From IMG/VR virus record IMGVR_UViG_3300028800_000012, positions 256 to 64,255 of that record: a DNA stretch of 64,000 bases. One strand, 5' to 3'. This DNA comes from a virus. This document shows, piece by piece, positions 3,340-63,389 of the stretch; positions within the stretch are counted from its first letter, which is position 1; the number at the start of each line of letters is the position of its first letter. The notes below the pieces were generated by a model. The model saw nothing but the letters and a program-made list of their open reading frames with translations. It did not search any database and had not been told where the DNA came from. Both the position numbers and the translations under genes were made by a program.

Positions 3340-3543
3340 CTATTTCGTCCCGCTACTATTCGTTCCGCTCATGAAGTCGGCAGAGGCATCGCTACCGGCG
3401 TCTTCGCCTGACACGGGCCTGCTGCCAGAACGCGGCGGCGTATTCGCGTCGTCATCGCCGCCAACGCTCACGAACGTTAGGTTGCCACGCTGCCAAGTGA
3501 ACTTGTTTTCCGGCGAATAGCCGCCGACAGTGCCGGTCGTCAA
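3340..3543 (-). CDS. hypothetical protein (67 aa)
   Basis: Track ORF. Its start overlaps the portal stop. Confidence 0.35.
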   Translation of the reverse strand: MTTGTVGGYSPENKFTWQRGNLTFVSVGGDDDANTPPRSGSRPVSGEDAGSDASADFMSGTNSSGTK

Positions 3544-5678: not shown

Positions 5679-7046
5679 CTACCAAATCCTCGGGGCGGCG
5701 CCGCCGACTTGCACGGGACCGCCGATATTCACTTCGGCAACAGCGCCGACCATCAATTCCGTCAGCGCCCACACCATCGCGTCCAATCGGTCGGGCGATG
5801 CCTTGCCAGTCAGCGGCTCCCACGTGCAAAGCTGGTCCTCCAGCTCCGGGAATGCGCCGGCATGACTGACTCGGCCCTGCTCATAGAGCGCCGATACCGG
5901 CTCCGCTCTGGCCTGCTTGCCTTTACTGGCATGGACGATGCGGACGGGAATGTTGGGCCGCACCGTTTCCAAGGTGTGCCGCACCATTTCGCCGCCTTGG
6001 TTGCCTTCGGCGACGATGCGGTCGGCCTTTAATTCGTCATAGAGGGCAATAGCGCGGCGAGCCCATGCGTCGGGGGTGTACCGGCCGGACACGTCTCGTA
6101 AAACGTATCCATGACCATTAGAATCGACTCCAGCGGCAACGATGCCGGTGAGTGCCGATGTATCCCCTGATGTAGCGGCCGGGTCGATTGCCACCACGAT
6201 CCGAACCAGATCGGGTGCTTTCGCCACCCTCGCCCGTTCGATCATGGCGCGTGTCCACAGCGCGCCTTCGACTTCCTCGATTAGCTCGCCGTCCAGCTCC
6301 TGCCGGCCAAGCCGCGTCCCTTCGTATTTGGACACGATCTGGGACAGGAAGGTCGGCGCAAGATTCGCCTTGTTGGCGTCGGTCTTGGCCCGTGTGACGA
6401 CGCAACGCGGCGAGCGCAGCAATTCCCGCAAGAGCGGGATCGGGCGCGGCGTTGTCGTTATGACGGCCTGCGGAGCGGCGCCGAGGCGAAGCCCAAACAT
6501 CGCCATGTCCCAGGCGTCGTTCGGGTCGCCATCGTTCCACGCGGCGACTTCATCGGCCCATATGCGGTCATGCTGCGGACCGCGAAGGCGGTTCGGCTCC
6601 TCTGCCGAGTAGCCGTGCGCTACAGCACCGTTTGCCCATGTCAGGCGATGGCGCTTTGACGGCTCGTAGATCGGCAGGCCGAGCGGCCGTCCGTAAATAT
6701 CCTTGTCGTTACGCCAACAGACCGAAAGGATGCCGGAAGGCCCCTCGATCATAACGTCTCGAATATCGCCCGCCGTGGGCGCTATAAGACCAATGTGCCG
6801 CGCGCCGCTTTTTACTTGGTCGCGGACCCATTCGGCCCCGGAGCGTGTCTTGCCGGCACCGCGCCCAGCCAGAAGAAGCCAGTAGTCCCAGCCCGTCTCC
6901 CCATCGTTTGGGGGCGGCGGTAACTGGTCTGTTCTGGCGAAGAATTCCCAATCGTATAGAAGCGCATCGGCTTCAGCGTCAGTCAGTTCCGCTAGAGCCG
7001 CCGACCTTTGATCCTGGCTCAGTCTGGCGAGAGATGAAATGTGCAA
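5679..7046 (-). CDS. terL: terminase large subunit
   Basis: 455 aa. Walker A motif LLLAGRGAGKTRSG, with a nuclease-half pattern downstream. It lies between the small terminase and the portal. Confidence 0.85.
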   Translation of the reverse strand: MHISSLARLSQDQRSAALAELTDAEADALLYDWEFFARTDQLPPPPNDGETGWDYWLLLAGRGAGKTRSGAEWVRDQVKSGARHIGLIAPTAGDIRDVMIEGPSGILSVCWRNDKDIYGRPLGLPIYEPSKRHRLTWANGAVAHGYSAEEPNRLRGPQHDRIWADEVAAWNDGDPNDAWDMAMFGLRLGAAPQAVITTTPRPIPLLRELLRSPRCVVTRAKTDANKANLAPTFLSQIVSKYEGTRLGRQELDGELIEEVEGALWTRAMIERARVAKAPDLVRIVVAIDPAATSGDTSALTGIVAAGVDSNGHGYVLRDVSGRYTPDAWARRAIALYDELKADRIVAEGNQGGEMVRHTLETVRPNIPVRIVHASKGKQARAEPVSALYEQGRVSHAGAFPELEDQLCTWEPLTGKASPDRLDAMVWALTELMVGAVAEVNIGGPVQVGGAAPRIW

Positions 7047-9481: not shown

Positions 9482-10219
9482 CTAGACAGCATCCTTCCAA
9501 AGCCAGATCGGCTCAGACGTGATGCTGGTTGTCGTGTTCGGCAGATACTTCCCGTCGATCTTGTCGGGGCGTACGTACTTCGCGAGGAAGTCCACGCGGC
9601 CCTCGCGCTCGACACGCCACACCGCGCCCTCCACGTCCTCTTTCGATCCGTGCTGCCCGTATTGCCCGAGCAGCGCCAGCGCGTTCTCAACGGACAGGGG
9701 CTCGGCGCTATCGCTAATCAGGTGCGCGGTCGGAATCTCGGCTACGGCGCACCGCTGCGCGAACTCGTCCCGAAGGATTCGCTTGCCCTCGCGGAAGATG
9801 TCGAAGGCGATGTAGGGCGCGAAGCGCGGATGCGCCGCGTCGTACAGCGTGCCGTGCGCCATCGCCATCCACTCACCGCAGATGCGCTCTCCAGGGTGCA
9901 GCAGATCGGCAAACACGATGCGGCGCTTCTTGACGTAGGGCGCGAAGGCTTTCAGGTGCTCATAAAGGGCGTCGGCCGCGCGATAGCCGGCGCGGGATAG
10001 GGCGACGATCTCCCCGTCGATGTTGGCAACCGACATGCACGCGCCGTCCAGCTTTTCCGTAACGACAATTCGGTCGCCCTTGCGTGGTTTCTCGCAGCAG
10101 ATGCGGGCCTGCCCTTCGTGTACGTGCCAGTCTCCGGGACCGAGACGCGAGTTCGGCAGATGGCCGATGGAGCCGTACGCTTTCGATTTCAGCGGTTTGG
10201 CTGGCTTCACATTCATCAC
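9482..10219 (-). CDS. RNA ligase-family nucleotidyltransferase
   Basis: 245 aa. Motif I is VTEKLDGACMSV (KxDG), motif IV-like is EGAVWRV, and motif V-like is FLAKYVRPDK. Confidence 0.65.
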   Translation of the reverse strand: MMNVKPAKPLKSKAYGSIGHLPNSRLGPGDWHVHEGQARICCEKPRKGDRIVVTEKLDGACMSVANIDGEIVALSRAGYRAADALYEHLKAFAPYVKKRRIVFADLLHPGERICGEWMAMAHGTLYDAAHPRFAPYIAFDIFREGKRILRDEFAQRCAVAEIPTAHLISDSAEPLSVENALALLGQYGQHGSKEDVEGAVWRVEREGRVDFLAKYVRPDKIDGKYLPNTTTSITSEPIWLWKDAV

Positions 10220-27172: not shown

Positions 27173-27576
27173 TGCAGCGCCTCGATCCAGACGCCGCGTT
27201 TTTCGAGGACTGGTCCGCATGGGCCAGTCTCGACGATCTACCGGAGCGTCCGACCAACGGTAACGGCGAGGCGGTGATTTACGGCCATCGAGCGTGGGGC
27301 AATTGGTCGGAGTATTATTGCGATCTGCGGCACGGTCGCGGCTGGGCTGGCGGCCCGCATTTTGAGATTGCCGTGCCGTGCAACGGCCCGATTGTTGACA
27401 TGGTGCGTCGCCTGCCAGGGGCACGGCAGCACCCCAGCCTATGGGGCACACATCAAGTCTCGCTGAGCAGGCTGCGCTACACATGGCAAGTACCTGCGCA
27501 GCATTGGCGCGCGGTGCGCGCTGCCCTACCGGCCATCAAAGCAGCAACCGTCAAATGGGTGAGGACGCCACGATGA
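27172..27576 (+). CDS. IS passenger ORF 3 (134 aa)
   Basis: Track ORF. Its stop overlaps the transposase ATG (ATGA at 27573-27576). Confidence 0.5.
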   Translation: MQRLDPDAAFFEDWSAWASLDDLPERPTNGNGEAVIYGHRAWGNWSEYYCDLRHGRGWAGGPHFEIAVPCNGPIVDMVRRLPGARQHPSLWGTHQVSLSRLRYTWQVPAQHWRAVRAALPAIKAATVKWVRTPR

Positions 27577-28616
27577 TGGCCCCCGCTACTGCCGATGTGC
27601 ATGCCTGGGAGCATCTGCCGTTTCCCAAATCGCTCCCGCAGTTCCAAAAGTTTTTCCCGGATAACGAGCGGTGCGCCCGTTACCTTGAGGGCGCACGCTG
27701 GCCGCGCGGCTTTGAATGCCCTCACTGCGGCAAGAAAGGCGAGCCGTTTAGATTTGAGTCCCGGCCCGGTGTGCTCCGCTGTCGAGACTGCCGCCGCGAC
27801 ATATCGCTGACGGCAGGCACCGTCATGGAGCGCACGCATACGCCGCTGACAACGTGGTTTTGGGCCGCCTATCTCGTATCGTCGATGACGCCTGGGCTGT
27901 CGGCAGTCCAATTCCAGCGCCAACTCGGATTGAGCCGCTACGAAACCGCGTTTCAAATTTTGCACAAGCTGCGGGCCGGGATGGTCCGGCCCGACCGCGA
28001 CAAGATCGGCGGGAATCTCGCGCGCAAGGATCATGTTGAGGTTGATGAGACTTGGATCGGCGGGGCCACGCGCGGCGAAGGCCGGGGCGTCCACGATCAA
28101 ACGCTCGTTATCGGCGCGGTCGAGGTCCGGCAGCGCCCGCCGAAAAAGGGCGACAAACCGGAGCGCAAGGGCGGGCGCTACGCTGGACGCCTGCGCCTGG
28201 ACGTGGTGCCGGATCGCACTGCAAAATCGCTGTGCGGTTTTGTCGAGCAAGCGGTAGAGCCGGGCGCGATCATCATTACGGACGCGGCTCCGAGCTATGC
28301 TGGCCTCGACAAGCTCGGCTACGCGCACCTGCCGGTGGTCGAGGCCGCCAACCCAGAAGTGGCGGAAGAATATCTGCCGATCATCCACCTCGCGTTTAGC
28401 AATCTCAAAAGCTGGTTGCGCGGCACGCACCACGGCGTCTCGCCGCAGCATCTGCAAGCTTACCTCAACGAGTTTGCTTTCCGCTTTAACCGGCGGTTCT
28501 ACCCGTTCAACGCCTTCCGCTCGCTGCTCGGCATCGGCGCGAACGGCGAGTCCCCGACCTACGACGGCCTTTACAGCGGCGACTGGAAACACCCCAGCGT
28601 TAGCGGTCATGGGTGA
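27573..28616 (+). CDS. IS1595-family (ISXO2-like) transposase
   Basis: Start chosen at ATG 27573 (MMAPATADVHAWEHLPFPKSL). Zinc ribbon FECPHCGKKGEPFRF...LRCRDCRRD. DDE-type core VEVDETWIGG...IITDAAPSY...NEFAFRFNRR. It is clearly paralogous to 30902-31942, but I did not compute an identity. Confidence 0.85.
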   Translation: MMAPATADVHAWEHLPFPKSLPQFQKFFPDNERCARYLEGARWPRGFECPHCGKKGEPFRFESRPGVLRCRDCRRDISLTAGTVMERTHTPLTTWFWAAYLVSSMTPGLSAVQFQRQLGLSRYETAFQILHKLRAGMVRPDRDKIGGNLARKDHVEVDETWIGGATRGEGRGVHDQTLVIGAVEVRQRPPKKGDKPERKGGRYAGRLRLDVVPDRTAKSLCGFVEQAVEPGAIIITDAAPSYAGLDKLGYAHLPVVEAANPEVAEEYLPIIHLAFSNLKSWLRGTHHGVSPQHLQAYLNEFAFRFNRRFYPFNAFRSLLGIGANGESPTYDGLYSGDWKHPSVSGHG

Positions 28617-30901: not shown

Positions 30902-31942
30902 TCAGCCATGATGACTAGCCATCGTCGGATGTTTCCACTCGCCGCTGTAGAGCCCGTCATAGGTCGGGCTTTCACCGTTCGCGCCGATGCCGAGCAAACT
31001 GCGGAAGGCGTTGAACGGGTAGAAGCGGCGGTTGAACCGGAAAACGAACTCGTTGAGGTAGGCTTGCAGATGCTTGGGGCTCACGCGCCCGTGGTGTGTC
31101 CCTTGCAGCCACGCCTTGAGGTTCGAAAAGACAAGGTGAACGATGGGCAGATATTCTTCGGCCACGTTCGGGTCGTTCCCCTCGACAACCGGCAAGTGCT
31201 GATAGCCGAGCGCGGGCAGGCCGTTGTAGCCGCCCCAGGCGTCGGTAATGATCATCGCGCCCGGTTCAACCGCCTGTTCTACAAATCCGGTCAGCGACTT
31301 AGCACCGCGCGTCGGCACGATTCCCAGCCGCAGGCGGCCAGCATAGCGCCCGCCGCGCCGCATGGGCTTGTCGCCTTTCTTGGCCGGTCGGGTGCGGACC
31401 TCGACGGCGGCCATGACCAGCGTTTGCCCTTGCGGGCCGCGCCCTTGGCCGCGCACCGCGCCGCCAACGTAGGTTTCGTCAACCTCGACGTGGTCGCCGC
31501 GCCCAAGGTTGCCGCCGATCCGGTCCCGGTTCTGCCGGACCATTCCGGCCCGCAGCTTGTGCAGGATTTGGAAGGCTGTTTCGCGGGTCAAGCCAAGCTG
31601 GCGCTCGAATTGAACCGTCGAAATGCCGGGCGTCACGGTCGAAACGAGGTATGCACCCCAAAACCACACCGTCAGTGGCGTATGGGTGCGCTGCATCACG
31701 GTCCCGACCGTCAGCGACGTTTGCTTGCGGCAGGCGCGGCACGTCAGGACCGTCTTGCGGGTTGCCATGCGGAAGGGCTCGCCCTTCTCGCCGCAATGCG
31801 GGCAGACAAAGCCTTTCGGCCACTTTGCGCCCTCAAGCCATCGGGCGCACGCGTCATCATCGGGAAAGAGCCGCTGGAAGTCCCGGAGCGACTTCGGGAA
31901 CGGCAGGTTCTCCCATTGGAGAACGTCGGCGTGGGGAGGCAT
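30902..31942 (-). CDS. IS1595-family (ISXO2-like) transposase
   Basis: 346 aa, with the same architecture and long identical stretches as 27573-28616 (for example NRRFYPFNAFRSLLGIGANGESPTYDGLYSG). Confidence 0.85.
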   Translation of the reverse strand: MPPHADVLQWENLPFPKSLRDFQRLFPDDDACARWLEGAKWPKGFVCPHCGEKGEPFRMATRKTVLTCRACRKQTSLTVGTVMQRTHTPLTVWFWGAYLVSTVTPGISTVQFERQLGLTRETAFQILHKLRAGMVRQNRDRIGGNLGRGDHVEVDETYVGGAVRGQGRGPQGQTLVMAAVEVRTRPAKKGDKPMRRGGRYAGRLRLGIVPTRGAKSLTGFVEQAVEPGAMIITDAWGGYNGLPALGYQHLPVVEGNDPNVAEEYLPIVHLVFSNLKAWLQGTHHGRVSPKHLQAYLNEFVFRFNRRFYPFNAFRSLLGIGANGESPTYDGLYSGEWKHPTMASHHG

Positions 31943-33176: not shown

Positions 33177-33545
33177 ATGAACGAACCGCGCATAGACGAT
33201 ACCGACCCTATCACGCTGCAAGAGGCGTGCGAGATAGTATTCCGGGGAACGTGCACGGTTTACACCTTGCGGGCGGAAGCGGCGCGCGGCAGGCTTGAGA
33301 TAGCCAAGATCGGGAAGCGCTACTATACGACCCTCCGCGCTGCCCGTGGCCTGTACGTCAAATGCCTCGAAGGAAATCCCCGCCCCGGCTCTATCTTGAC
33401 CCAAAGCGAAAGCAGTGGGTCATCCGCGACGGCGCAGACTTCATCCGCACGGGCCGCTCTGAGGCAGAGCGTGACAGCGCTGAAAGGGTCCTCGCAAAGT
33501 ACCTCGGGCAGAAGCATCAGCCGGAGCGTGGCCCGTCGCCACTGA
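33177..33545 (+). CDS. excisionase / HTH DNA-binding protein (tentative)
   Basis: ITLQEACEIVFRGTCTVYTLRAEAARGRLEIAKIGKRYYTTLRA follows the excisionase-type HTH pattern. It lies immediately upstream of the integrase, and its 3' part overlaps it. Confidence 0.5.
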   Translation: MNEPRIDDTDPITLQEACEIVFRGTCTVYTLRAEAARGRLEIAKIGKRYYTTLRAARGLYVKCLEGNPRPGSILTQSESSGSSATAQTSSARAALRQSVTALKGSSQSTSGRSISRSVARRH

Positions 33546-34357
33546 TAGCCGATATGCTGCTGGCCTATACCAGAGAGCACGTCCCGCACACGCGATCGGC
33601 AGCAAGTGCGGCCTATCACATCGGTAGCCTGGAGGCGTGGTGGGGCGACAAGCGATTGGCCGACGTGACCCCGGAAAACTGCCGCGCGTATGCGACCGGC
33701 CGCAAGGCTTACGGCGCCCGGCGCGACCTTGAGGTCCTGCGAGCTGCAATCAACCACTGGCACAGGCACCACGGCCCGCTGCCGGCGGTCCCGACCGTAA
33801 TCCTCCCGGAGAAAGCCGCCCCGCGCGAGCGATGGTTGACCCGTTCGGAGGCGGCGAAGCTGCTATGGGCGGCCCGGCGCACTCCGCACCTTGCCCGGTT
33901 TATCCTGCTCGGGCTCTACACAGGCTCCCGCTCGGGCGTGATTCTGGGGGCCAAGTGGGACCAGATTGACCTTGAAAAAGGGCTGATGCGCCGCATTGCC
34001 CTTGGGAAGGCCCAGGATAAGCGCAAGCGCGCTCCGACAGTTCGGCTCGGAAAACGGATTTTAACGCATCTCCGCCGCTGGAAACGGCACGATGATCCCC
34101 GAGTCGGGTATCTGTGCCATTACAACGGTGCGCGGGTGCAGAAGATGCGCCGGTCGTGGGCTGCGGCACGGAAGCGGGCCAAGCTAGACGCCACGGTGAC
34201 GCCGCACGTTCTGCGGCATACCAGGGCGACATGGCTGATGCAGGCCGGGATCGATGTATGGGAGGCCGCTGGGCACTTGGGGATGACGCCGGAGACGCTG
34301 CAAAACGTCTATGGAAAACATCACCCCGACTACCAAAAGCGGGCCGCGGAGGTGTAG
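33362..34357 (+). CDS. int: tyrosine integrase
   Basis: 331 aa. Catalytic context: GLYTGSRSGVILG (Arg), HVLRHTRATWLMQ (H-x-x-R), HLGMTPETLQNVYGKH (His...Tyr). Confidence 0.85.
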   Translation: MPRRKSPPRLYLDPKRKQWVIRDGADFIRTGRSEAERDSAERVLAKYLGQKHQPERGPSPLIADMLLAYTREHVPHTRSAASAAYHIGSLEAWWGDKRLADVTPENCRAYATGRKAYGARRDLEVLRAAINHWHRHHGPLPAVPTVILPEKAAPRERWLTRSEAAKLLWAARRTPHLARFILLGLYTGSRSGVILGAKWDQIDLEKGLMRRIALGKAQDKRKRAPTVRLGKRILTHLRRWKRHDDPRVGYLCHYNGARVQKMRRSWAAARKRAKLDATVTPHVLRHTRATWLMQAGIDVWEAAGHLGMTPETLQNVYGKHHPDYQKRAAEV

Positions 34358-47983: not shown

Positions 47984-49012
47984 ATGCGCAAAGGCTATCG
48001 TCCAGAACTCGAAGGGCTCAGAGGTGTGCTTGCCGCATGGGTGATGCTGTACCATGCGGCCATCTTTGGCGGCTTCTGGAAGAATGTACCAAGTGGCGTT
48101 GCCGCTCTGATGGATGGGGCGCGCGCCGTCGAGGTGTTTATGGTCCTTAGCGGATTCGTGATTGCGGGACTTATTTGGCGTGAACGGGAAGGATATAGCG
48201 TTTTTCTATTTCGCCGCTTTTTGAGGCTGTACCCTATTTATCTGATCTGCATTGTAGTAGCGGCATTGGAAATCAAATTTGGCATCGTCGCGCCGCACTT
48301 TGATCTCTCCAAATGGCCGGAGCATTTATTAGCGCACATTCTCATGCTGCACGGCGCTATCTCCACTTCCGTTCTCCCTGGAAGCGCCGGAGCAATTCTA
48401 AATCCGGCATGGTCGATATCTCTTGAATGGCAGTTCTACATTATCGCGCCAATTCTATTGTACCTGAGAGGACCTGCCGGGCTAGTACTTGCTTCAACCG
48501 TCGCTGTCGTTCTACTGCGCCTTGTCGCGCCGCACCTAAACGGTTTCACCGGCGCATTTCTCCCGTTAAATATACAGTTCTTCTGGATCGGCATAATCAC
48601 CTATGCGGCGCTGGAACGTAGCAAGATCGAGCCAATGACTGTCATTTTCCTGACTGCGCTCTGTCTTTTGTTCCTGCCCGTGATCGTCGCCGTGCCGATT
48701 GTTCTCTGGGTGGCTGCGATCTCCCCGGGGCCGGCGTCCCGCATGCTTACGAGCCATATCCTGCTTTCGCTCGGTCGCTGGTCACTTCCCATCTATCTCG
48801 CGCACGAGCCCATCATTGTCGCTGTACGATCGATGCTGCCAACGCTCGGTCCTCTAAAGGACACCTTGCTGATAGTAGGCATCGCCGGCACTCTGACGGT
48901 ACTGGTGGCGGCGGTGCTGCACAGATATGTCGAGGCGCCGTTCATCGTCCTCGGTAAGCGCCTCAAGAGCAGAACATCTAGTGAATCCACACCAAACCAA
49001 GTTCTGTCATAA
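47984..49012 (+). CDS. acyltransferase family 3 membrane protein (O-acetyltransferase-like moron)
   Basis: 342 aa, polytopic. N-terminal LEGLRGVLAAWVMLYH motif. It is the only plus-strand gene inside the tail module. Confidence 0.75.
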   Translation: MRKGYRPELEGLRGVLAAWVMLYHAAIFGGFWKNVPSGVAALMDGARAVEVFMVLSGFVIAGLIWREREGYSVFLFRRFLRLYPIYLICIVVAALEIKFGIVAPHFDLSKWPEHLLAHILMLHGAISTSVLPGSAGAILNPAWSISLEWQFYIIAPILLYLRGPAGLVLASTVAVVLLRLVAPHLNGFTGAFLPLNIQFFWIGIITYAALERSKIEPMTVIFLTALCLLFLPVIVAVPIVLWVAAISPGPASRMLTSHILLSLGRWSLPIYLAHEPIIVAVRSMLPTLGPLKDTLLIVGIAGTLTVLVAAVLHRYVEAPFIVLGKRLKSRTSSESTPNQVLS

Positions 49013-56505: not shown

Positions 56506-56867
56506 TACTTGCGCACCTGCAGCGTGTAACTGCCGATGATGCCGCCGATCTCGCGCGTCTTGAAATTGACAACCGTGTAGACATCCGACCCGACGACAAG
56601 ACGGTCACCCACCTGCGGGGTGACGCTAGTATCGGTCGGGAGAAACGTTGCCTTGCGGTCGGATTCCTTGATGACGGTGCCGTCCTGCGCAACATCGGAA
56701 TAATCGCCGAGCCGTCCAGTGCCGGGGTAGTCGGTCGTCGTGTCGCCGGTTGTCGTGCCTGTGGTTGGGTCATACGTGCCGGCAACAATGCGCCGCAGCG
56801 TCATTGCCCGGCCCATGTCGCCGAGAAACCCGACGACACTCGCCTGGAATTGATTGCCGACCGTCAT
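56505..56867 (-). CDS. head closure / head-tail joining protein
   Basis: 120 aa. The call rests on position and size. Confidence 0.5.
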   Translation of the reverse strand: MTVGNQFQASVVGFLGDMGRAMTLRRIVAGTYDPTTGTTTGDTTTDYPGTGRLGDYSDVAQDGTVIKESDRKATFLPTDTSVTPQVGDRLVVGSDVYTVVNFKTREIGGIIGSYTLQVRK

Positions 56868-57325
56868 CAGCTCGTCGCGTCGTCGATGAAGTCGCGGCTA
56901 TACGGCAGCGCAGTACCGGGGAAATCCATCTGGCCGACCTCGAAGCGATTCGGCTCGCGATCCGTATCCTGCCGCTCCGTATCCATATCGGCTTTGCTGG
57001 TGCCGCCGACGAACGGCGACCCAAGCCCGCCGCTGTCCGCCGTGACCGCCTGTGTTCGCAGCCGAGTCGCCAGTGCGCGGAACATATCGGCGCGCTGGTT
57101 GTATTGCACGCTGGCGCCGTCGATCGACATCGCCGCAAAGCGGGAATACTTCGCCGCCTGTGCATCGGCGAGTGCTGCCGCTGTCTGCAACGGCGATCCA
57201 TAGATGCCGAGCGCGCCGGAAATTTCTTCGTCTGAGAACAGCGGGTCTGACGTGGTTGTATCGCCGAGTGCCAAGCGGACTTTCGCAAGATCGTTCGCCA
57301 AAGATGTGTCGTAAGTAAACGTCAC
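56867..57325 (-). CDS. head-tail adaptor-like protein
   Basis: 152 aa. N-terminal pattern LAKVRLALGDTTTSDPLFSDEEI. It is the first connector gene. Confidence 0.5.
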   Translation of the reverse strand: MTFTYDTSLANDLAKVRLALGDTTTSDPLFSDEEISGALGIYGSPLQTAAALADAQAAKYSRFAAMSIDGASVQYNQRADMFRALATRLRTQAVTADSGGLGSPFVGGTSKADMDTERQDTDREPNRFEVGQMDFPGTALPYSRDFIDDATS

Positions 57326-58122
57326 TTTCCGTCCACCATTTCACGCACAACACGAAGATATTTGAACGCCAACCCCATATTCATTTCGGCGAGCGTGAAC
57401 TGCTGTTGGACTAATGAAGCCCACCATTGACGCCTGTTGCCGGGCATCTCCGGTTTTTCCAGATCGGCGAGATCGAGATTCCCGACCGGCGCCGCCGCAG
57501 ACGTTGGCTCGACAAACACAGGGACGCCCTCTTTTGCGGCTTCTACCGCCGCATTGCTCGAATGCGTCACCAAGGCCCAACAACCCCGCAATTGCTCGCG
57601 TAACGGCCGGGTTTCTTCCTTGGTCCGGATAATGATCGGCCGGTCTGTGTGCTGCCGCACAAGCCCTTGGATTTTACAGGCCCAAGGGATGACCTTGATC
57701 CCCATTGCACGGCCGTAATGCACGCTCGGCAACGCTATGAGAACGTGCTTTCCCGTCGTTCTCCACGGCTTGATCTCGCGGATGCACATCGCCTCCGCGC
57801 GCTCGTAATCCGGCTTATCGAACATGACGGGAGTCATGCCGCGATAAGTGAACCTGTAGTAACCGAACGGGCCGCCCTTAGCCGGCCGCCAATAACCGTT
57901 GTCAATATGCCAGAACGGACGATCTGCTCTTATTGCCTGCGGGATAGCATCAAGCGCCGTCCAAAGCTGGCCCCATATTGCAAATGGAGCGCCGTCATTC
58001 GGCGGCATTCCTGCGACCAGCGCCGCCTTCTCTCCCCACCCCGGCGCTAGTGACGCCATGATGCGGGTTGTCTTTATTCTCCGCTCAGGCTCGACTACGC
58101 ACCATAGGCGAACGTCGCTCAT
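57322..58122 (-). CDS. putative glycosyltransferase-like protein (family unclear)
   Basis: 266 aa. C-terminal ALVTHSSNAAVEAAKEGVPVFVEP resembles GT-B or capsule-synthesis enzyme ends. Its stop overlaps the adaptor start. Confidence 0.35.
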   Translation of the reverse strand: MSDVRLWCVVEPERRIKTTRIMASLAPGWGEKAALVAGMPPNDGAPFAIWGQLWTALDAIPQAIRADRPFWHIDNGYWRPAKGGPFGYYRFTYRGMTPVMFDKPDYERAEAMCIREIKPWRTTGKHVLIALPSVHYGRAMGIKVIPWACKIQGLVRQHTDRPIIIRTKEETRPLREQLRGCWALVTHSSNAAVEAAKEGVPVFVEPTSAAAPVGNLDLADLEKPEMPGNRRQWWASLVQQQFTLAEMNMGLAFKYLRVVREMVDGK

Positions 58123-58134
58123 GGCGCGGCACTC

Positions 58135-58776
58135 CTACCAACTCAGGATATAATCACCGGCGATGACCTTCCGGACTTGCGCGCCCCATGAGCACAGCAA
58201 TTCAACGGCATCGGTATCTCCGATGCCGAACTGCTTACCCTTGCCGATCTTCTGCTCGACAATCATGGCCGGACGATACTTGCGGATGGTCTGCGCGCCG
58301 CCTTTGCAAACAAACAGTTCGAACCCTTCGCAATCGATTTTTACGAGGTCAACATTGGCGAGTTCGAACGAATCCAGAGTCTTCATCTTCGCCAGATGCT
58401 CACCGTGCGCGGCAATCCATGTATCGCCCGATGAACTCTCGCCAGTATGCAGCGAAACGGATGCCCCGTGATCGCCGAGCGCAAACGGCCAAATATCGCA
58501 ATTGTCTGTTTTGATATTCGCGTACCAGCATTCGCGGTGCCGCTCGACCGGCTCGAATGCCGTGACGTGCCGGAACATGACGGACAGAGGCCGCGTCCAC
58601 AGTCCCGTATGCGCCCCGATATCGACTGCATGGCGGAAGTTCTTCACATACGGTAGCGCCGCCATCAGTTTGTGCAATTGATAACTGGGACCGCCGGCAA
58701 ATTCAGGCCCGTTCTCCAGAAATGCATCCAAGTGCGATTCACCGTCAGGGAGAAAGAAGCCATTAACTTGCTTCAA
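58135..58776 (-). CDS. FkbM-family methyltransferase
   Basis: 213 aa. AVDIGAHTGLWT (SAM motif I), VTAFEP and VDLVKIDCEGFE follow the FkbM pattern. Confidence 0.7.
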   Translation of the reverse strand: MKQVNGFFLPDGESHLDAFLENGPEFAGGPSYQLHKLMAALPYVKNFRHAVDIGAHTGLWTRPLSVMFRHVTAFEPVERHRECWYANIKTDNCDIWPFALGDHGASVSLHTGESSSGDTWIAAHGEHLAKMKTLDSFELANVDLVKIDCEGFELFVCKGGAQTIRKYRPAMIVEQKIGKGKQFGIGDTDAVELLCSWGAQVRKVIAGDYILSW

Positions 58777-59599
58777 GCAAGCCTCACTTTCGCCGCGTCA
58801 TAGACCTCATCGGCCCCGATCCGCGCCATGCAGTCTCGACAATGGTCGCAAGGAGCAAGATTCCCGCAACCCAGATCATCGCCGGTAAACATGTTCGTAT
58901 GCACGTCGTAGCCTGTTACGCGCGGCGAAATAAACCCGCCGAAGATCACCACCGCAGCGATACCAAGCGCCGCCGCTGCATGATGCAGCCCGCCTTCTGG
59001 TCCGACATACAATTGCGCCCGCTCAAGCGACGCGCATGCGAGCCGGAATGTAGCGGCCTTGATTGTTCTGACACCGGCTAGCCGATGCGGCCCCGTGTCG
59101 AACTGCGCCACGTCGTGCCCGTCCATCGCCAACTGATCGGCGACTTCCTGATACCTGTTGACCGGCCACTGCTTATTCGGCGCCGAATGCTTGGTGTTCG
59201 GCTCGATGATGACGTCGGCATCGCCGAACGACTTCGCCCATTCCCGCTCGGCGTCGGTCAGATAGAGTTCGCCGGGGATAGCCTTGAAGCCTGGATTAAA
59301 TATCCATCGATCGCCATCGATCCGGCAGTAAGCCCGCGCGCCGGGCGCATGGATGATCCAGTCTATCGATTCGCCGGTATCCTCCGCGCCGGGAGGCGCG
59401 ACGTTCGGATTGCCGCGGTAGATGTCATGGGCATTGCGGTGCCAGATGATGCGGCGGCAATTAACGTCACTGAAGGCGACGCGCTTGCCGTGCTTGGCTG
59501 CGCCTTTGGCAAGGCCGGAGCCAAGGATCTCGTCGCCGAAGCCCGTGACACGACCTCAATTATAGGCGACGCATTGTTCGCATGGCGTTCCGCGCACAT
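58773..59599 (-). CDS. GT9 (heptosyltransferase-like) glycosyltransferase; the start is only reachable through a frame change
   Basis: The GT9-like frame is open from immediately after the rSAM TGA (59556-59558) to 58773: ...VTGFGDEILGSGLAKGAAKHGKRVAF...NKQWPVNRYQEVADQL...LYVGPEGGLHHAAAALGIAAVVIFGG. It has no ATG/GTG/TTG for 141 codons. ATG 59597-59599 opens the other frame as MCAERHANNASPIIEVV. Confidence 0.6.
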
Positions 59600-60506
59600 C
59601 CTTTTTCAGATGCGCCGCACGCAATGCCGTGAATGCCGCCGAATTCCACGCATCCATAAACGGCTGCTTAGTCAGATCGCCCATCGCCCATGATTTATTC
59701 GCGTCGAAGCAGCAGGCGGATAGCTTCCCGTCGGCCGTGACATGGCCTTCCGTGAAAGCTGACCAGCAAGGCAATGGCTCTCTTAACGCCCCGAGCCTGC
59801 CTTGATTGCCGGCGGTCGGCCGGTATCCGAGTTCTTCTTCCCGCGCCGTCGCAAATGCACCCATCGAGTACAAGGGCAGCCAGTAATGCTCGTCCACATA
59901 CGGCACGACATGCTCGGCCAGGAGATTTTCCATCTTGGCCTGTTGCTCGCCGTCATACCGGATCGAAGACGCATAGAGTCCGGTCGGATACCCCCTCGCC
60001 TCGCGCAATTCCCATGCGGCTTTGATATTGCTCAGTGCGATCGGATACAGCCGGCGGTCAACCGCCATGACGTGTTCGAACTGGTCTTCATCCGCCGCAT
60101 TTACCGACCATTTGATCGAGTCGATGCCGGCGCGCATGAGTTCGTCGACCCAGCGCGGCTTTGCCAGTGACGCATTCGACGTGAGGAATACATACGGCAT
60201 CCCCACGTCCTGCTTGAGGTATTCGACGCAGGCGACAAGCAGTTTGGGATTCATCATGCTTTCGCCGAGGAAGAAGCACCCGACCTCCTCGACGCCGGCA
60301 TCGCGCATTTCGCGTGTGATTCGCTTGAAAAACTCGAAATCCATGTCGGACTTCGGCTGTTCCTCGCGCGTCCGTAGAGCGCAGAAGCCGCAGCGATAGT
60401 TACATCGCGGCGATATTTCGATCTTGACCGAGCGCGGCGCGGGACATTCGGCCTTGAGATATGCCGGGGGAATTTTTGTGACGGCATCGATGCGTTCGGT
60501 AATCAT
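59556..60506 (-). CDS. radical SAM / SPASM-domain enzyme
   Basis: CNYRCGFC is the CxxxCxxC cluster. The C-terminal Cys-rich SPASM-like region reads CWSAF...LSACCFD...GTPCEQC. The start is taken at ATG 60504-60506, which overlaps the upstream stop. The track ORF starts at 60539. Confidence 0.75.
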   Translation of the reverse strand: MITERIDAVTKIPPAYLKAECPAPRSVKIEISPRCNYRCGFCALRTREEQPKSDMDFEFFKRITREMRDAGVEEVGCFFLGESMMNPKLLVACVEYLKQDVGMPYVFLTSNASLAKPRWVDELMRAGIDSIKWSVNAADEDQFEHVMAVDRRLYPIALSNIKAAWELREARGYPTGLYASSIRYDGEQQAKMENLLAEHVVPYVDEHYWLPLYSMGAFATAREEELGYRPTAGNQGRLGALREPLPCWSAFTEGHVTADGKLSACCFDANKSWAMGDLTKQPFMDAWNSAAFTALRAAHLKKDVRGTPCEQCVAYN

Positions 60507-61243
60507 CGCGCCGCCCACTCCGCCAATGTTGAACGCCATTCATCGGCGAATGGAACGTCCTCGTATCCCGCCATGCAGGGAGAACCCAACGTATGGTGCA
60601 CGACCTTCGGGCTTTCGATCGGCTCGCTTTCGCCGGCCAGCCAATTCCATTCCGGAGCGAGTTCGCCGATTTGGTCGTCTTTCAGCCAGCAGAGCCGATG
60701 CAGATCGCGGCCGGGAAGCGTATTGACGAGTTCGGGCGTGAGCGCCTTGTTTGCCGTTCGGTCGCAATCAAAAACGACCAAGCTGCTCCAGTTTTTGCGG
60801 GCGTATTTGGTCTGCGCCTGCCCGTCCATTTTGACGGTTGAATGCGGCTCATGCTGATGCTTGACGCACCATGCGGCCTTTGGGCTTTCCTGCCGCTCGA
60901 TCCATTGGAACAGGCGGCACAGGTTTTCCCTGACCAGCATGTCGCAGTCCATGAACAGCGCCAGCCCATGACCGGCGAGATGCGGAACAAGAAAGCGAGA
61001 TATCGAGAACTGCGTCGAGCAAGGAGCGCCGCTGATCTCGTCCCACAACTGCCACTGACCTTCGCTGTTCAAGCGCCGGTCGGTGGGTCGGCGGTAGAGC
61101 CCCCGCTTTTTCAAATCATCCAGCACCAGGCCATACACCGGCACCGGAAGCGTCAGTCTCTTGTTGATCGAGTGGCGGGCTACAGCGAACGCGGCGGCTT
61201 CACGCGGATCGAAGCCGATCCAGATACTCCAAGCCCTGCTCAA
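60503..61243 (-). CDS. GT8-like glycosyltransferase (DxD)
   Basis: 246 aa, TTG start. IWIGFDPREAAAFAVARHSI and FSISRFLVPHLAGHGLALFMDCDMLV follow the GT8 pattern. Confidence 0.55.
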   Translation of the reverse strand: MSRAWSIWIGFDPREAAAFAVARHSINKRLTLPVPVYGLVLDDLKKRGLYRRPTDRRLNSEGQWQLWDEISGAPCSTQFSISRFLVPHLAGHGLALFMDCDMLVRENLCRLFQWIERQESPKAAWCVKHQHEPHSTVKMDGQAQTKYARKNWSSLVVFDCDRTANKALTPELVNTLPGRDLHRLCWLKDDQIGELAPEWNWLAGESEPIESPKVVHHTLGSPCMAGYEDVPFADEWRSTLAEWAAR

Positions 61244-61874
61244 TCGTCACCTTTGGAAAAGCGTCAACGGTCGATATCGGCGAGGCATTCAAAACCTCGA
61301 CGCCGCTGCGTTTGAGTTGGGGGAGACAGGCGTTGAAATTGTCGCCCCAGTTTTTCCAGTACCGGGCGTTTTGTCCCGCCGAGTACCAGTAGTAGTTTTC
61401 TAATTTGTAGTGATGCCCGCCCTGCTCGGTGTAATCGAAGCCGAACAGAACGATACGCTTTGCGCCTTTGAGATAGGCGAGATTGACAGCGCCGAACCCG
61501 GAATTGCCGCCGCTTTGAATGACGGCGGGGTCATCGCTTAAGCCCTCGAAACGGGAGAGCCGAAGATACTTCGCCCGCTCGATCAGCGGACATTCAAGCG
61601 GAAACTCGTATTCCTGCCCGGTCGGAGCGAGGAAGATTTCCGCCCGGCACTCATGCCGCAATTTGTCGGCCTGCCGGCATATCCACCGCCGGTCCAATGC
61701 GAACACCGCATCGGCAAACGGCATTTCCCACACCGCTTCCTTGACGGCGAGAACGCGAATGCCGGGAATGTGGAAGCGGCGGAAGTCGATATCTTTGAGG
61801 CTCGGACCCGTGCCGACGATTGCCAGCGGTTTGTCCGACCAATCCGGGTCGCCGATGCTCGTAAACGGCAGCAT
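61200..61874 (-). CDS. DUF115 / Maf-MptE-like putative glycosyltransferase
   Basis: Start at ATG 61872-61874. LAIVGTGPSLKDID...VLAVKEAV...ALDRRW and GGNSGFGAVNLAYLKGAKRIVLFGFD follow the DUF115 pattern. Confidence 0.5.
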   Translation of the reverse strand: MLPFTSIGDPDWSDKPLAIVGTGPSLKDIDFRRFHIPGIRVLAVKEAVWEMPFADAVFALDRRWICRQADKLRHECRAEIFLAPTGQEYEFPLECPLIERAKYLRLSRFEGLSDDPAVIQSGGNSGFGAVNLAYLKGAKRIVLFGFDYTEQGGHHYKLENYYWYSAGQNARYWKNWGDNFNACLPQLKRSGVEVLNASPISTVDAFPKVTIEQGLEYLDRLRSA

Positions 61875-62263
61875 CAGGACTTCGGCTTGTTCTTCGAACC
61901 TTTCGGTCGGCCGCCCTTGCGCCTGACGGGTACATCCGCCGCCATGCACACGGTCTGCGCAGCCTCTTGCGGCGCCGCTTCAACAGCCAGAGGCGGCGCA
62001 AATGGCCGGTCGTTCTGCGTGATGTAATTCCAGTCGGCTTCTTCGGCCCGCCTGATCCAGCGCCGCTCGTAATGCTCTTTCAGCATCCGAGTGGAGAATT
62101 GAGACTTGTCGACAAGATCGCCGACACGCGGATGATATCCATTGACGGTGAAGCCTTTCGGCCACGCGCCATAGACGTAATCCGCGTCTCGATCGAATGG
62201 TAAGAGCCAGTACGGGGCGTTCGGTGATGGCACCCTAGGCGTCCCGCACTGTGTTTGTGCCAC
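61874..62263 (-). CDS. hypothetical protein with a C-terminal AT-hook
   Basis: 129 aa, ending in VRRKGGRPKGSKNKPKS. The GRP core with basic flanks is the canonical AT-hook form. Confidence 0.5.
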   Translation of the reverse strand: MAQTQCGTPRVPSPNAPYWLLPFDRDADYVYGAWPKGFTVNGYHPRVGDLVDKSQFSTRMLKEHYERRWIRRAEEADWNYITQNDRPFAPPLAVEAAPQEAAQTVCMAADVPVRRKGGRPKGSKNKPKS

Positions 62264-62276
62264 GTATCAAGGCCGA

Positions 62277-63293
62277 TTAGGCGATGATCGTGTTGAAAAA
62301 CACGCCGCACTCAGCCGCGACGAGTTTTTGCGCATACGCCTGTTGGATTTCCAGCCGGTCGGACTCAAGATGCTCTATCCGGAACTTCTTGATGCGCTGA
62401 CCGGCGGGTCCGGCGCCAGTGAAGCCGACCCAGTTGAACGTGTAGCCTCCAGACGGAGACTGCAGGCTCGCGGCAGGAGCCGCATACACAAGCAGCGCCG
62501 ACTTGCCGCCGATGAACGCATTCGACTCGTTCGTGTTCAGCGTGGTCGAATTGCTTTCCGCGCCCGTATTCTTGACGGCATCCATGACGAGGATTTCGTC
62601 AATTTCCATCAGCGCGGCGACGGCCTGCTTGGTGATGATGGCCGGCGCACCCGGAGACGCGCCGTACTTGATGCGGTCCGTGATCGAGCCGTGCTCGGAC
62701 AGCTTCGACCAGACCTGACGGCCCATGACCAACTTGTTCGCCCGGAAGGTGGACGACAGGTGGATGCGGTCGTTGTAGGTCTTCACATCAGCGACGGGGG
62801 TGGCGTTGGAATCGTTCCACTGAAGGACGGTATTTCCAGCCGGGGAAGCCGAGACGCCGGTCACGTCGACCGACGCGCCGGTCCAGATGCCGGTGGTGAA
62901 GTAATTCGACGCCCAGTTGACCTCACGGTTGATGAGCGCCTTGTTCGCAAGGAAGTTCGTTGTATCGCGGTCCATATCGAGCGGCGAATCCGCATTCGAA
63001 CGAACCTGATCTTCCACATCCTTGTGCAAGGCCCACACGTCGGCGTAATACGTCGGCGTGTTGTCGATCCTCCAGCCATCGCCGGCCGATTCCGAACCGG
63101 GCGCACGCTTCTTCATCGAGTCGCGGTTGAGGTCGCCGCGCGAATAGACGAAATAGCGGTCGGACTGTTTCTGTACGGGAACGGCCGGGAACACTTTGTC
63201 GGCGACAAAGGCGTCCGGCTTCTGCATGAACGCGACGGAGATGTTCGTCAAAATCGCATTGACGTGGACATCGCCAGCGACAGGGTTAGCCAT
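62277..63293 (-). CDS. major capsid protein
   Basis: 338 aa, immediately downstream of the decoration-like gene, with a strong ribosome-binding site (GGGAGCAGTACAA-ATG). The call rests on composition and position. Confidence 0.75.
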   Translation of the reverse strand: MANPVAGDVHVNAILTNISVAFMQKPDAFVADKVFPAVPVQKQSDRYFVYSRGDLNRDSMKKRAPGSESAGDGWRIDNTPTYYADVWALHKDVEDQVRSNADSPLDMDRDTTNFLANKALINREVNWASNYFTTGIWTGASVDVTGVSASPAGNTVLQWNDSNATPVADVKTYNDRIHLSSTFRANKLVMGRQVWSKLSEHGSITDRIKYGASPGAPAIITKQAVAALMEIDEILVMDAVKNTGAESNSTTLNTNESNAFIGGKSALLVYAAPAASLQSPSGGYTFNWVGFTGAGPAGQRIKKFRIEHLESDRLEIQQAYAQKLVAAECGVFFNTIIA

Positions 63294-63363: not shown

Positions 63364-63389
63364 CGAAAAAGCCGCCCTTAAGGCGGCCA
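63364..63389 (-). terminator. intrinsic terminator-like hairpin between the decoration and capsid genes
   Basis: The minus strand reads GCCGCC-TTAAG-GGCGGC followed by TTTTT. Confidence 0.5.

Follow-up and report, generated by a model that had tools for sequence, protein, structure and literature searches.

Phage-encoded glycosylation is a known phenomenon and in actinophages extends to the virus particle itself, where glycans on the capsid and tail-tube subunits of mycobacteriophages of the Che8, Corndog, and Myrna type are attributed to Freeman et al. 2023 (summarized in PMC12619734). Here, we analyze a 64,000-nucleotide stretch of viral DNA (positions 256 to 64,255 of IMG/VR record IMGVR_UViG_3300028800_000012; hereafter the window), in which a block of genes between the major capsid gene and a putative head-tail adaptor gene encodes four soluble glycosyltransferases (GTs), an FkbM methyltransferase, and an optional radical S-adenosylmethionine (radical-SAM) enzyme. 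Judged by its homologues, the block is one copy of what appears to be a modular, horizontally mobile phage glycan-assembly cassette, which may well serve to glycosylate virion proteins late in infection. With the mycobacteriophage systems it has in common that the transferases are phage-encoded in a tailed phage, that capsid and tail tube are acceptors (proposed here, shown there), and that a glycan shield on the virion is a possible role; it also displays one trait of virion glycosylation systems, namely transferase genes embedded among virion structural genes. The differences are that the host is a proteobacterium rather than an actinobacterium, that the enzyme set comprises Cst/Maf-like, KpsC/WbbB-like, GT9-like, and GT8-like transferases with a methyltransferase and the optional radical-SAM enzyme, and that the capsid protein lacks a C-terminal Ser/Thr-rich acceptor tail. 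Moreover, the system is known here from its genes alone.

The enzymes themselves resemble those that assemble the inner core of lipopolysaccharide (LPS) and the linkers of capsules. For each of the four transferases, the best match by structure or profile falls among WaaC/WaaF, the GT8 core hexosyltransferases, KpsC/KpsS/WbbB, and Cst-II/Lst, and the host LPS pathway would supply the predicted donors. However, the similarity is remote, with 10-17% identity in the structure matches and scores below the Pfam and NCBIfam cut-offs for GT8, GT9, and DUF115; an invariant C-x5-C-x-H-C knuckle sets the GT9-like family apart from WaaF; and the cassette lies in a phage head operon rather than in a locus for LPS or capsule. 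Soluble Maf/Cst-like, GT9-related, and GT8 enzymes are also found in bacterial protein O-glycosylation (Maf/FlmG on flagellins, the autotransporter heptosyltransferases TibC/AAH, and GlyE on serine-rich adhesins), in which folded or nascent proteins are modified in the cytoplasm from host sugar nucleotides, and the structural search with the GT8-like protein ranks GlyE among its top matches. The C-lobe of TibC carries a Cys-coordinated metal finger for protein-substrate recognition (PMC4358343), but that finger has four cysteines over 32 residues, whereas the knuckle described here has three cysteines and one histidine within 10 residues, and the GT9-like sequence profile does not detect TibC. 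The Maf-like protein of the cassette differs from Maf in consisting of the catalytic core only, without the flagellin-binding domains.

Among cultured phages, Caulobacter phage CcrColossus, which likewise has an alphaproteobacterial host, encodes four transferases (gp126, gp128, gp129, and gp131) of the same four families, i.e., sialyltransferase-like, the KpsC/WbbB-like family (here called GTx), GT-A/GT8-like, and family 9, at 31-36% identity. In that 280-kb phage, however, they follow the tail genes and precede the lysis cassette, with neither an FkbM nor a radical-SAM gene. They are annotated without function, and the genome paper (phiCbK) does not contain the words 'glycosyl', 'sialyl', or 'sugar'. 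In the literature searched, we found no description of the present cassette, of a phage radical-SAM-GT pair, of a Kdo (3-deoxy-D-manno-octulosonic acid) transferase-like enzyme in a phage head module, or of the function of this radical-SAM family. A preliminary description of the window, made from the sequence alone, had regarded a radical-SAM-containing version of virion glycosylation inside a proteobacterial-type head module as undescribed. This assessment has to be revised: the cassette proves to be widespread, its transferases are already annotated in CcrColossus, and the radical-SAM gene is optional.

Organization of the gene block

The open reading frame (ORF) listing places seven consecutive minus-strand ORFs between the major capsid gene and the putative adaptor gene, as the preliminary description had stated. 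The features of the region, in the direction of transcription and with lengths in amino acids (aa), are as follows:

62277-63293, minus strand: major capsid protein (phrog_1005, 5.5e-80, and PF03864); upstream boundary of the cassette and candidate acceptor
62303-62322, minus strand: terminator-like hairpin and T-run inside the last codons of the capsid gene
61874-62263, minus strand: small protein of 119-129 aa; N-terminal domain conserved, tail basic and AT-hook-like, KGGRPKGSKNKPK
61200-61874, minus strand: Cst-II/Maf-like transferase (GT42/DUF115 superfamily), 224 aa (PF01973, phrog_4603, profile matches)
60503-61243, minus strand: GT8-fold DxD transferase (GT-A, retaining-type), 246 aa (phrog_28018, 4e-52; AlphaFold2 model and Foldseek)
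59544-60533, minus strand: 990-bp segment carrying the radical-SAM gene (blastn against the relative L081; gene maps)
59556-60506, minus strand: radical-SAM enzyme, 316 aa, with a CX3CX2C motif and a C-terminal five-Cys SPASM/twitch-like domain (PF04055, PF13186)
58773-59546, minus strand: GT9-like (GT-B, heptosyltransferase-like) transferase, 257 aa (profile match to WaaF)
58135-58776, minus strand: FkbM-family SAM-dependent methyltransferase, 213 aa (PF05050, TIGR01444, phrog_8156 at 1e-24)
57322-58122, minus strand: GTx, 266 aa, predicted to be retaining beta-Kdo transferase-like (GT99/GT107 fold; AlphaFold2 model and Foldseek)
56867-57325, minus strand: putative head-tail adaptor (phrog_1732, 3.6e-21, no function named); downstream boundary of the cassette

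The identity of the adaptor rests on its position ahead of the tail-terminator and tube genes. The window represents nearly all of a circularly permuted 64.1-kb phage genome (ENA ERZ27245399 k141_959026, 64,759 bp, with overlapping ends), which encodes a tyrosine integrase and an S24 repressor and thus belongs to a temperate phage. It also encodes DnaB, primase, a C5 DNA methylase, an MT-A70 DNA methylase, a dCMP deaminase, and a GcrA-like protein; the latter, together with nearest homologues in Mesorhizobium, Bradyrhizobium, and Xanthobacteraceae, points to an alphaproteobacterium as the likely host. The head module is of the Mu type, with TerL, portal, MuF, protease, cement protein, and a cap_E-type capsid protein (partly read from L081). 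There are no close relatives among GenBank phages, and a DNA search with the 6.3-kb region gave two short low-identity matches only.

The genes are joined mostly by overlaps, as had been noted before. The small-protein and Maf-like genes meet in a TGATG overlap (Maf-like ATG at 61874), the Maf-like and GT8-like genes overlap by 44 nt, the GT8-like and radical-SAM genes share ATGA provided that the latter starts at Met12 (60506), and the GT9-like and FkbM genes share TTGA. A gap of 12 nt separates FkbM from GTx, and the adaptor start lies on the GTx stop in a GTGA overlap, which brings the total to five overlapping junctions, four inside the block and one with the adaptor. From these overlapping stops and starts, we infer that the cassette is transcribed together with the structural genes, in line with the expression proposed previously. 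No sigma-70-like promoter was found on the minus strand within the block. The hairpin at 62303-62322 could attenuate expression of the downstream enzymes, but terminator-like sites in the region are not enriched over the shuffle expectation, which makes it weak evidence. None of the seven proteins of the block has a membrane-helix-like hydrophobic segment of 19 residues, the highest Kyte-Doolittle mean (2.03) occurring in a conserved Rossmann strand of the GT9-like protein.

A recurrent cassette in unrelated head modules

More than 50 viral contigs, among them contigs from soil and freshwater as well as Rhizobiales prophages, carry the same set of four or five enzymes. A scan of IMG/VR with the major capsid protein returned two close relatives only; a scan seeded with the GT9-like protein gave 48 loci, most with the Maf-like, GTx, and FkbM genes, with or without the GT8-like gene, in variable order. 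The slot between capsid and adaptor is itself shared: the survey of this insertion point, which had been suggested as a check, yielded seven contigs that carry the cassette there (L081, L088, L089, L091, L092, L094, and L218), with capsid proteins of 63-78% identity directly preceding it. Among these seven, L091 lacks the GT8-like gene, and only L089 has a radical-SAM gene.

Elsewhere, the cassette immediately follows the capsid gene of a lambda-like Mesorhizobium prophage, separates connector from head-closure genes in an HK97-like contig, and follows the portal gene of a Terminase_3-type contig. Overall, most copies are situated between head genes and adaptor, in no fewer than three types of head module that are unrelated to one another. 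A census of flanking genes, in which 137 flanking ORFs from 53 loci were clustered, gave as the largest clusters an adaptor (Ad1, nine members, seven of them downstream), portal-related proteins (eight and five), capsid proteins (six and four), and a prohead protease (four). In CcrColossus, as described above, the transferase genes lie outside the head module, and in Pelagibacter phage Mosig, FkbM, GT8-like, and GTx genes are found among replication genes, which makes the head-module location frequent but not universal.

The transferases and the methyltransferase

Profile and structure searches with each ORF confirmed or refined the enzyme calls of the preliminary description, and none was reassigned to an unrelated function. 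The protein previously called DUF115/Maf-like is now better described as Cst-II/Maf-like. Its match to PF01973 (2.2e-5) remains below the cut-off at 24.8 bits against 34.6, but it matches phrog_4603 ('alpha-2,3-sialyltransferase') at 7e-26, and the family profile finds Campylobacter Cst-II at 2.8e-4 and, weakly, the Magnetospirillum Maf structure 5mu5 (0.086). These matches suggest that it belongs to the superfamily of CMP-ulosonic acid transferases, with a CMP-(non)ulosonic acid as the predicted donor.

The next protein had been recognized as a GT8-like DxD transferase, and its structure agrees: the AlphaFold2 model (pLDDT 93.2) matches GT8/GT24 enzymes, with WbbM, GlyE, UGGT, LgtC, LARGE1, XXYLT1, and glycogenin as top Foldseek matches and a probability of 1.0 for WbbM, GlyE, LgtC, and glycogenin. 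D99 and D101 of the DxD motif are invariant. By sequence, it gave no Pfam match at E<=0.1 and hence no assignment to PF01501, and of its 2640 homologues, two of 120 carry a precomputed PF01501 assignment among the matches listed. The FkbM methyltransferase had likewise been named correctly and exceeds both relevant cut-offs (PF05050, 1.1e-13, 52.1 bits against 22.7; TIGR01444, 9e-18, 65.1 bits against 37.7).

What had been described merely as a further GT-like protein, GTx, can be specified as beta-Kdo-transferase-like. By sequence, there is a weak match to DUF6716, and the family profile reaches KpsC only at E 0.43, but the AlphaFold2 model (pLDDT 95.8) finds KpsC, WbbB, or KrkA in 23 of its 24 top Foldseek matches in the PDB (E 3e-6 to 9e-4, TM score 0.31-0.55), with SenB at rank 19. 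The model thus resembles the retaining beta-Kdo transferases by fold, and a corresponding catalysis is predicted. D74, N75, H187, S188, and S189 are invariant in the family; in the retaining beta-Kdo transferases the catalytic Asp nucleophile is D232 (WbbB) or D160 (KpsC).

The GT9 heptosyltransferase-like assignment holds in part. The family profile finds WaaF at 6.2e-6 and WaaC at 4e-3, but the sequence scores fall below the cut-offs, at 15 bits against 22 for PF01075, scored on the 119-aa ORF that begins at the first canonical start, and at 25 bits against 185 for TIGR02193, scored on the full-length 260-aa ORF. Taken together, the profile match and these scores make the protein GT9-like but distant. 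The knuckle that is absent from WaaF is formed by C226, C232, H234, and C235, all invariant in the GT9-like family.

The AT-hook protein at the head of the block is a more ambiguous case. Profile searches of Pfam, PHROG, and NCBIfam gave no family match. Orthologues in L088, L089, L091, L092, and L218 retain the N-terminal domain and the basic tail, with the GRP core of the tail kept in three of the five (L088, L089, and L218), and L081 has a tblastn match at the same position. The GRP-containing basic C-terminal tail and its conservation within the lineage therefore stand. The protein is lineage-specific and is not counted here within the enzyme module; it may be a DNA-binding head protein.

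A conserved gene with a non-canonical start

The reading frame of the GT9-like gene is open from the TGA stop of the radical-SAM gene onwards, and yet contains no ATG, GTG, or TTG over 138 codons. At the expected start position, 9 nt past that TGA, there is an ACG (59546-59544), and a GAGG Shine-Dalgarno (SD) core overlaps the radical-SAM stop ahead of it. Homologues begin with M-G-x-G-D, and in 45 of them the codon preceding G-x-G-D is ATG in 31, GTG in four, TTG in three, ATC in three, ACG in two, and GTC and ATA in one each. Thus, L081 has ATC after a TAG and a G-run (10177-10191), L089 has GTC five bases after AGGAGG (about 5986-6000), and L102 has ATA after GGGAGG (about 5970-6000). Non-canonical start codons hence recur in independent homologues, a few codons past an in-frame upstream stop and with an SD-like sequence nearby. 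Compared with L081 and L088, the ratio of nonsynonymous to synonymous substitution rates (dN/dS) is ~0.10 in the 138 start-less codons and equally in the rest of the gene, and the gene is under purifying selection. Gene callers skip or shorten it owing to its non-canonical start (ACG, ATC, ATA, or GTC), and the source record instead contains a spurious 202-aa ORF on the opposite strand (59085-59693).

The most economical explanation is that the protein is made from the near-cognate ACG by weak initiation coupled to upstream termination, which would probably hold the enzyme at a low level within a highly expressed operon. Read-through of the upstream stop codon, giving a radical-SAM-GT9 or GT8-GT9 fusion, is less economical, although the upstream gene is in frame with the GT9-like gene in the window, in L081, and in L089. 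The possibility that translation starting at the ATG at 59599 enters the GT9 frame by a programmed frameshift was also considered and rejected, since L081 would need a shift in the opposite direction and the homologues start exactly at M-G-x-G-D.

An optional radical-SAM gene

The radical-SAM enzyme matches PF04055 (5e-14, 53.2 bits against a cut-off of 29.5) and the SPASM family PF13186 (1.7e-12, 47.8 bits against 21.5). The SPASM-type Cys cluster of the preliminary description nevertheless needs qualification. Eight cysteines are conserved among 152 sequences, six in all 152 and two in 151, and comprise C35, C39, and C42 of the CX3CX2C motif, all three invariant, and five in the C-terminal part (C247, C265, C266, C309, and C312, spaced C-x17-CC-x42-C-x2-C). 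A full SPASM domain has seven or eight cysteines and two auxiliary [4Fe-4S] clusters; the five found here fit a single auxiliary cluster, as in a BtrN-like twitch domain. Sequence matches in the PDB agree, relating the N-terminal core to viperin, MoaA, and the unnamed 9dfu/9dfn chains, and the C-terminal domain to the BtrN twitch. No NCBIfam equivalog was reached at its cut-off, the best score being 58.7 bits against 380. Exact look-ups of the 327-aa ORF and of one other ORF found no record, owing to the choice of start codon, and tblastn against GenBank phages gave no match.

The gene is an optional insertion that is absent from the nearest relatives. L081 and L088 both lack the segment; in L081, 43 bp take the place of the 990 bp, and the two sequences align again from the first Gly codon of the GT9-like gene onwards. 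Of 4177 homologues, the best 120 are 74-84% identical; the nearest, at 78-80%, are chromosomal genes of Betaproteobacteria, and the orthologue of Azoarcus sp. L1K30 has 74% identity. In the bacterial loci (L136-L217), where the median identity among loci is 84%, the gene stands alone beside genes for FNR/Crp regulators, an NMO-like protein, and universal stress proteins and beside ccoN, hemN, NnrS, and nap genes, and a GT8-like gene is nearby in only three of 82 loci. This neighborhood, which is a point of difference from the BtrN, MoaA, and viperin-type enzymes, suggests a role tied to anaerobic growth or nitric oxide.

In IMG/VR, by comparison, 39 of 80 viral loci have a GT8-like gene no more than 100 nt away from the radical-SAM gene, and the neighbors of the latter include methyltransferases, a tetratricopeptide repeat (TPR) protein, GDP-mannose dehydratase, DegT aminotransferase, terminase, portal, and three capsid families. 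The radical-SAM protein of L089 belongs to a different lineage (only 53% identical, and at most 59% identical to any other) but occupies the same slot between the GT8-like and GT9-like genes. We read this as repeated recruitment into the cassette, which would imply a functional link to the glycan. The step 'on the sugar or the peptide' that had been proposed for the enzyme is not established, given that the gene is optional and orthologous to a stand-alone gene from FNR/ccoN/hemN neighborhoods.

The TPR family that neighbors the radical-SAM gene at 27 loci was examined for a GT9-like C-terminal domain, but support was negligible: the hhalign probability was 7%, and searches of PDB and Pfam returned TPR matches only. 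Another variant of the cassette was observed in IMG/VR immediately upstream of the terminase gene (L059-L062, L056, and L048), in the order sialyltransferase-like, GT-A, methyltransferase, GDP-mannose 4,6-dehydratase, DegT aminotransferase, GT8-like, and radical-SAM; its dehydratase and aminotransferase constitute a perosamine-type pathway.

Product, acceptor, and alternative explanations

The reading that we rank first is late-expressed glycosylation of virion proteins from host CMP-Kdo-type, ADP-, and UDP-sugars, and we judge its chances of being right or wrong to be evenly balanced. In such a scheme, the cassette genes would be transcribed with the late head operon, and the donors would come from the LPS pathway of the Gram-negative host: the Cst-like and KpsC-like enzymes would use CMP-Kdo or a different CMP-ulosonic acid, the GT9-like enzyme an ADP- or other NDP-sugar, and the GT8-like enzyme a UDP-hexose. 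Pfam annotations of nearly the whole genome contain no sugar-nucleotide synthesis genes and no 5mYOX/TET, ThyA-like hydroxymethylase, or DpdA, as had been noted previously for nucleotide-sugar and base-hydroxymethylase genes, and a host that already makes the donors would explain the former. Many Rhizobiales LPS cores lack heptose, which renders ADP-heptose uncertain as the donor of the GT9-like enzyme. For the Cst-like enzyme, CMP-Kdo is a possible donor in view of the gonococcal sialyltransferase Lst, which, according to the title of PMC8092323, can transfer Kdo. The product would be a short glycan resembling an LPS inner core or capsule linker, O-methyl-capped by the FkbM enzyme; the radical-SAM enzyme, taken up from a bacterial chromosomal lineage, would add a tailoring step. 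The acceptor would most likely be a co-made virion protein, i.e., the capsid protein, the decoration protein, or the tail tube.

It is the position and coupling of the genes that favor a virion protein as acceptor: head modules of at least three unrelated types carry the cassette at their head/adaptor junction, its proteins are soluble, and its junctions overlap. The ancestry of the enzymes, on the other hand, favors an envelope glycolipid, and we regard it as possible, albeit on the unlikely side, that the cassette acts instead on intermediates of lipid A-core, O-antigen, or capsule linker on the cytoplasmic side of the inner membrane, where it would add Kdo-type, heptose-type, and hexose residues and a methyl cap and thereby alter the cell surface for superinfection exclusion, for sparing progeny from adsorption to debris, or for lysogenic conversion. 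The closest characterized relatives are all glycolipid enzymes (KpsC/WbbB/KrkA, Cst-II/Lst, WaaF/WaaC, and LgtC/WbbM), acting on LPS, O-antigen, or capsule glycolipid and not on protein; the Joint Genome Institute names homologues 'lipopolysaccharide biosynthesis glycosyltransferase'; the phage is temperate; and the cassette is located away from the head module in Mosig and beside the lysis genes in CcrColossus. Host-envelope remodeling is nevertheless difficult to reconcile with a cassette that is translationally coupled inside the late head operon, presumably normally silent in lysogens, and that has neither a promoter of its own nor a flippase or Gtr-type membrane partner; indeed, the Gtr Pfam families (GtrA, GtrB, and GtrC of O-antigen conversion modules) were not found in the genome annotations. 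The recurrence at the head/adaptor junction in unrelated head modules also speaks against it. Furthermore, the genome has a conversion-type gene elsewhere, namely an Acyl_transf_3 (O-antigen acetyltransferase-like) gene at 47984-49012 (plus strand), on the opposite strand within the tail-fibre region, which is a typical lysogenic-conversion moron and whose layout, usual for envelope-modifying morons, is unlike that of the cassette. Several observations besides the enzyme ancestry and the two cultured phages also weigh against glycosylation of the virion. The acceptor is deduced from gene position alone; a Ser/Thr-rich C-terminal extension such as reported for mycobacteriophages is absent from the capsid protein, and inspection of the capsid and tube proteins for an acceptor tail revealed variable S/T/N-rich internal loops only; the bacterial radical-SAM orthologues stand alone, unrelated to glycan loci; and the GT9-like gene, having no canonical start, could have been inactivated recently.

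This last point leads to the more general proposal that the block is decaying cargo, a hitch-hiking moron in the process of being lost, with the GT9-like gene dead through its ACG and the radical-SAM gene an unrelated, accidental insert. The 138 codons without a canonical start in a gene that gene callers skip, the absence of the radical-SAM gene from the nearest relatives and its closeness to chromosomal bacterial genes, and two IS1595 transposase genes in the genome are all compatible with decay, but we think it very unlikely. All seven ORFs are intact, the GT9-like gene has a dN/dS of about 0.10 in both halves, and non-canonical codons occupy the same start position, preceded by SD-like sequences, in several independent homologues. 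An accidental insertion also fails to explain the second, 53% identical lineage in the GT8|GT9 slot of L089 or the proximity to GT8-like genes at 39 of 80 viral loci. DNA hypermodification, in which the transferases and the methyltransferase would decorate phage bases against restriction and the radical-SAM enzyme would supply a reactive base, seems to us the least likely of all. IMG/VR contains many phage GT clusters for DNA glycosylation, their DNA glycosyltransferases being T4 beta-GT-like or TarP/JGT-like (bioRxiv 10.1101/2023.12.21.572611), the genome encodes the C5 and MT-A70 methylases and the dCMP deaminase, and the adjoining small AT-hook-like protein could bind DNA. However, the folds here are GT8, GT9, GT42, and GT99/107-like, the methylases lie ~35-40 kb away in the early region, and enzymes of the 5mYOX/TET, ThyA-like, and DpdA kind are missing from the annotations, as mentioned above. 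Moreover, four different transferases together with an FkbM enzyme point to an oligosaccharide.

If the cassette does glycosylate virions, glycosylation of phage particles reaches well beyond the actinophages, with consequences for the stability and adsorption of phages, for their recognition by predators or immune systems, and for receptor mimicry. The predicted linkage of Kdo-type sugars to protein would also be a chemical novelty. Independently of this, a very conserved radical-SAM family is common to phage glycan cassettes and FNR-neighborhood loci of Betaproteobacteria. A far broader proposition, about which we are decidedly doubtful, is that tailed phages of Alphaproteobacteria and other Gram-negatives coat their capsids or tails with a Kdo-containing, O-methyl-capped mimic of the LPS inner core, built in the cytoplasm by a portable cassette from the CMP-Kdo, NDP-sugar, and UDP-sugar pools of the host and tailored in some phages by an oxygen-independent radical-SAM enzyme taken from the FNR-linked gene pool of bacteria. 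On that view, the protein-linked Kdo glycan would be of a kind not seen before, and the cassette would offer a first functional handle on the radical-SAM family. The GT9-like family also illustrates how a conserved enzyme gene can be routinely overlooked by gene callers when it starts with ACG, ATC, ATA, or GTC. The question of virion glycosylation is directly testable, as cultured Caulobacter phages such as CcrColossus have the same four transferases.

Additional features of the genome

Between the cement/decoration and capsid genes, a strong terminator-like hairpin is found at 63370-63388 (minus strand), with a stem of 8 bp including six GC pairs, followed by TTTTCGTT. The portal protein (3540-5669, minus strand, 709 aa) has a C-terminal ADP-ribosyltransferase exotoxin domain (PF03496), whereas the portal protein of L081 is 506 aa long and lacks this domain. 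Two genes for IS1595-family transposases are present in inverted orientation (27441-28616, plus strand, and 30902-31942, minus strand), with the integrase gene (33362-34357) close by. Finally, downstream of the adaptor, the tail-terminator genes occur as a tandem paralogous pair, both matching PF13554 (55154-55627 and 55646-56059, minus strand).

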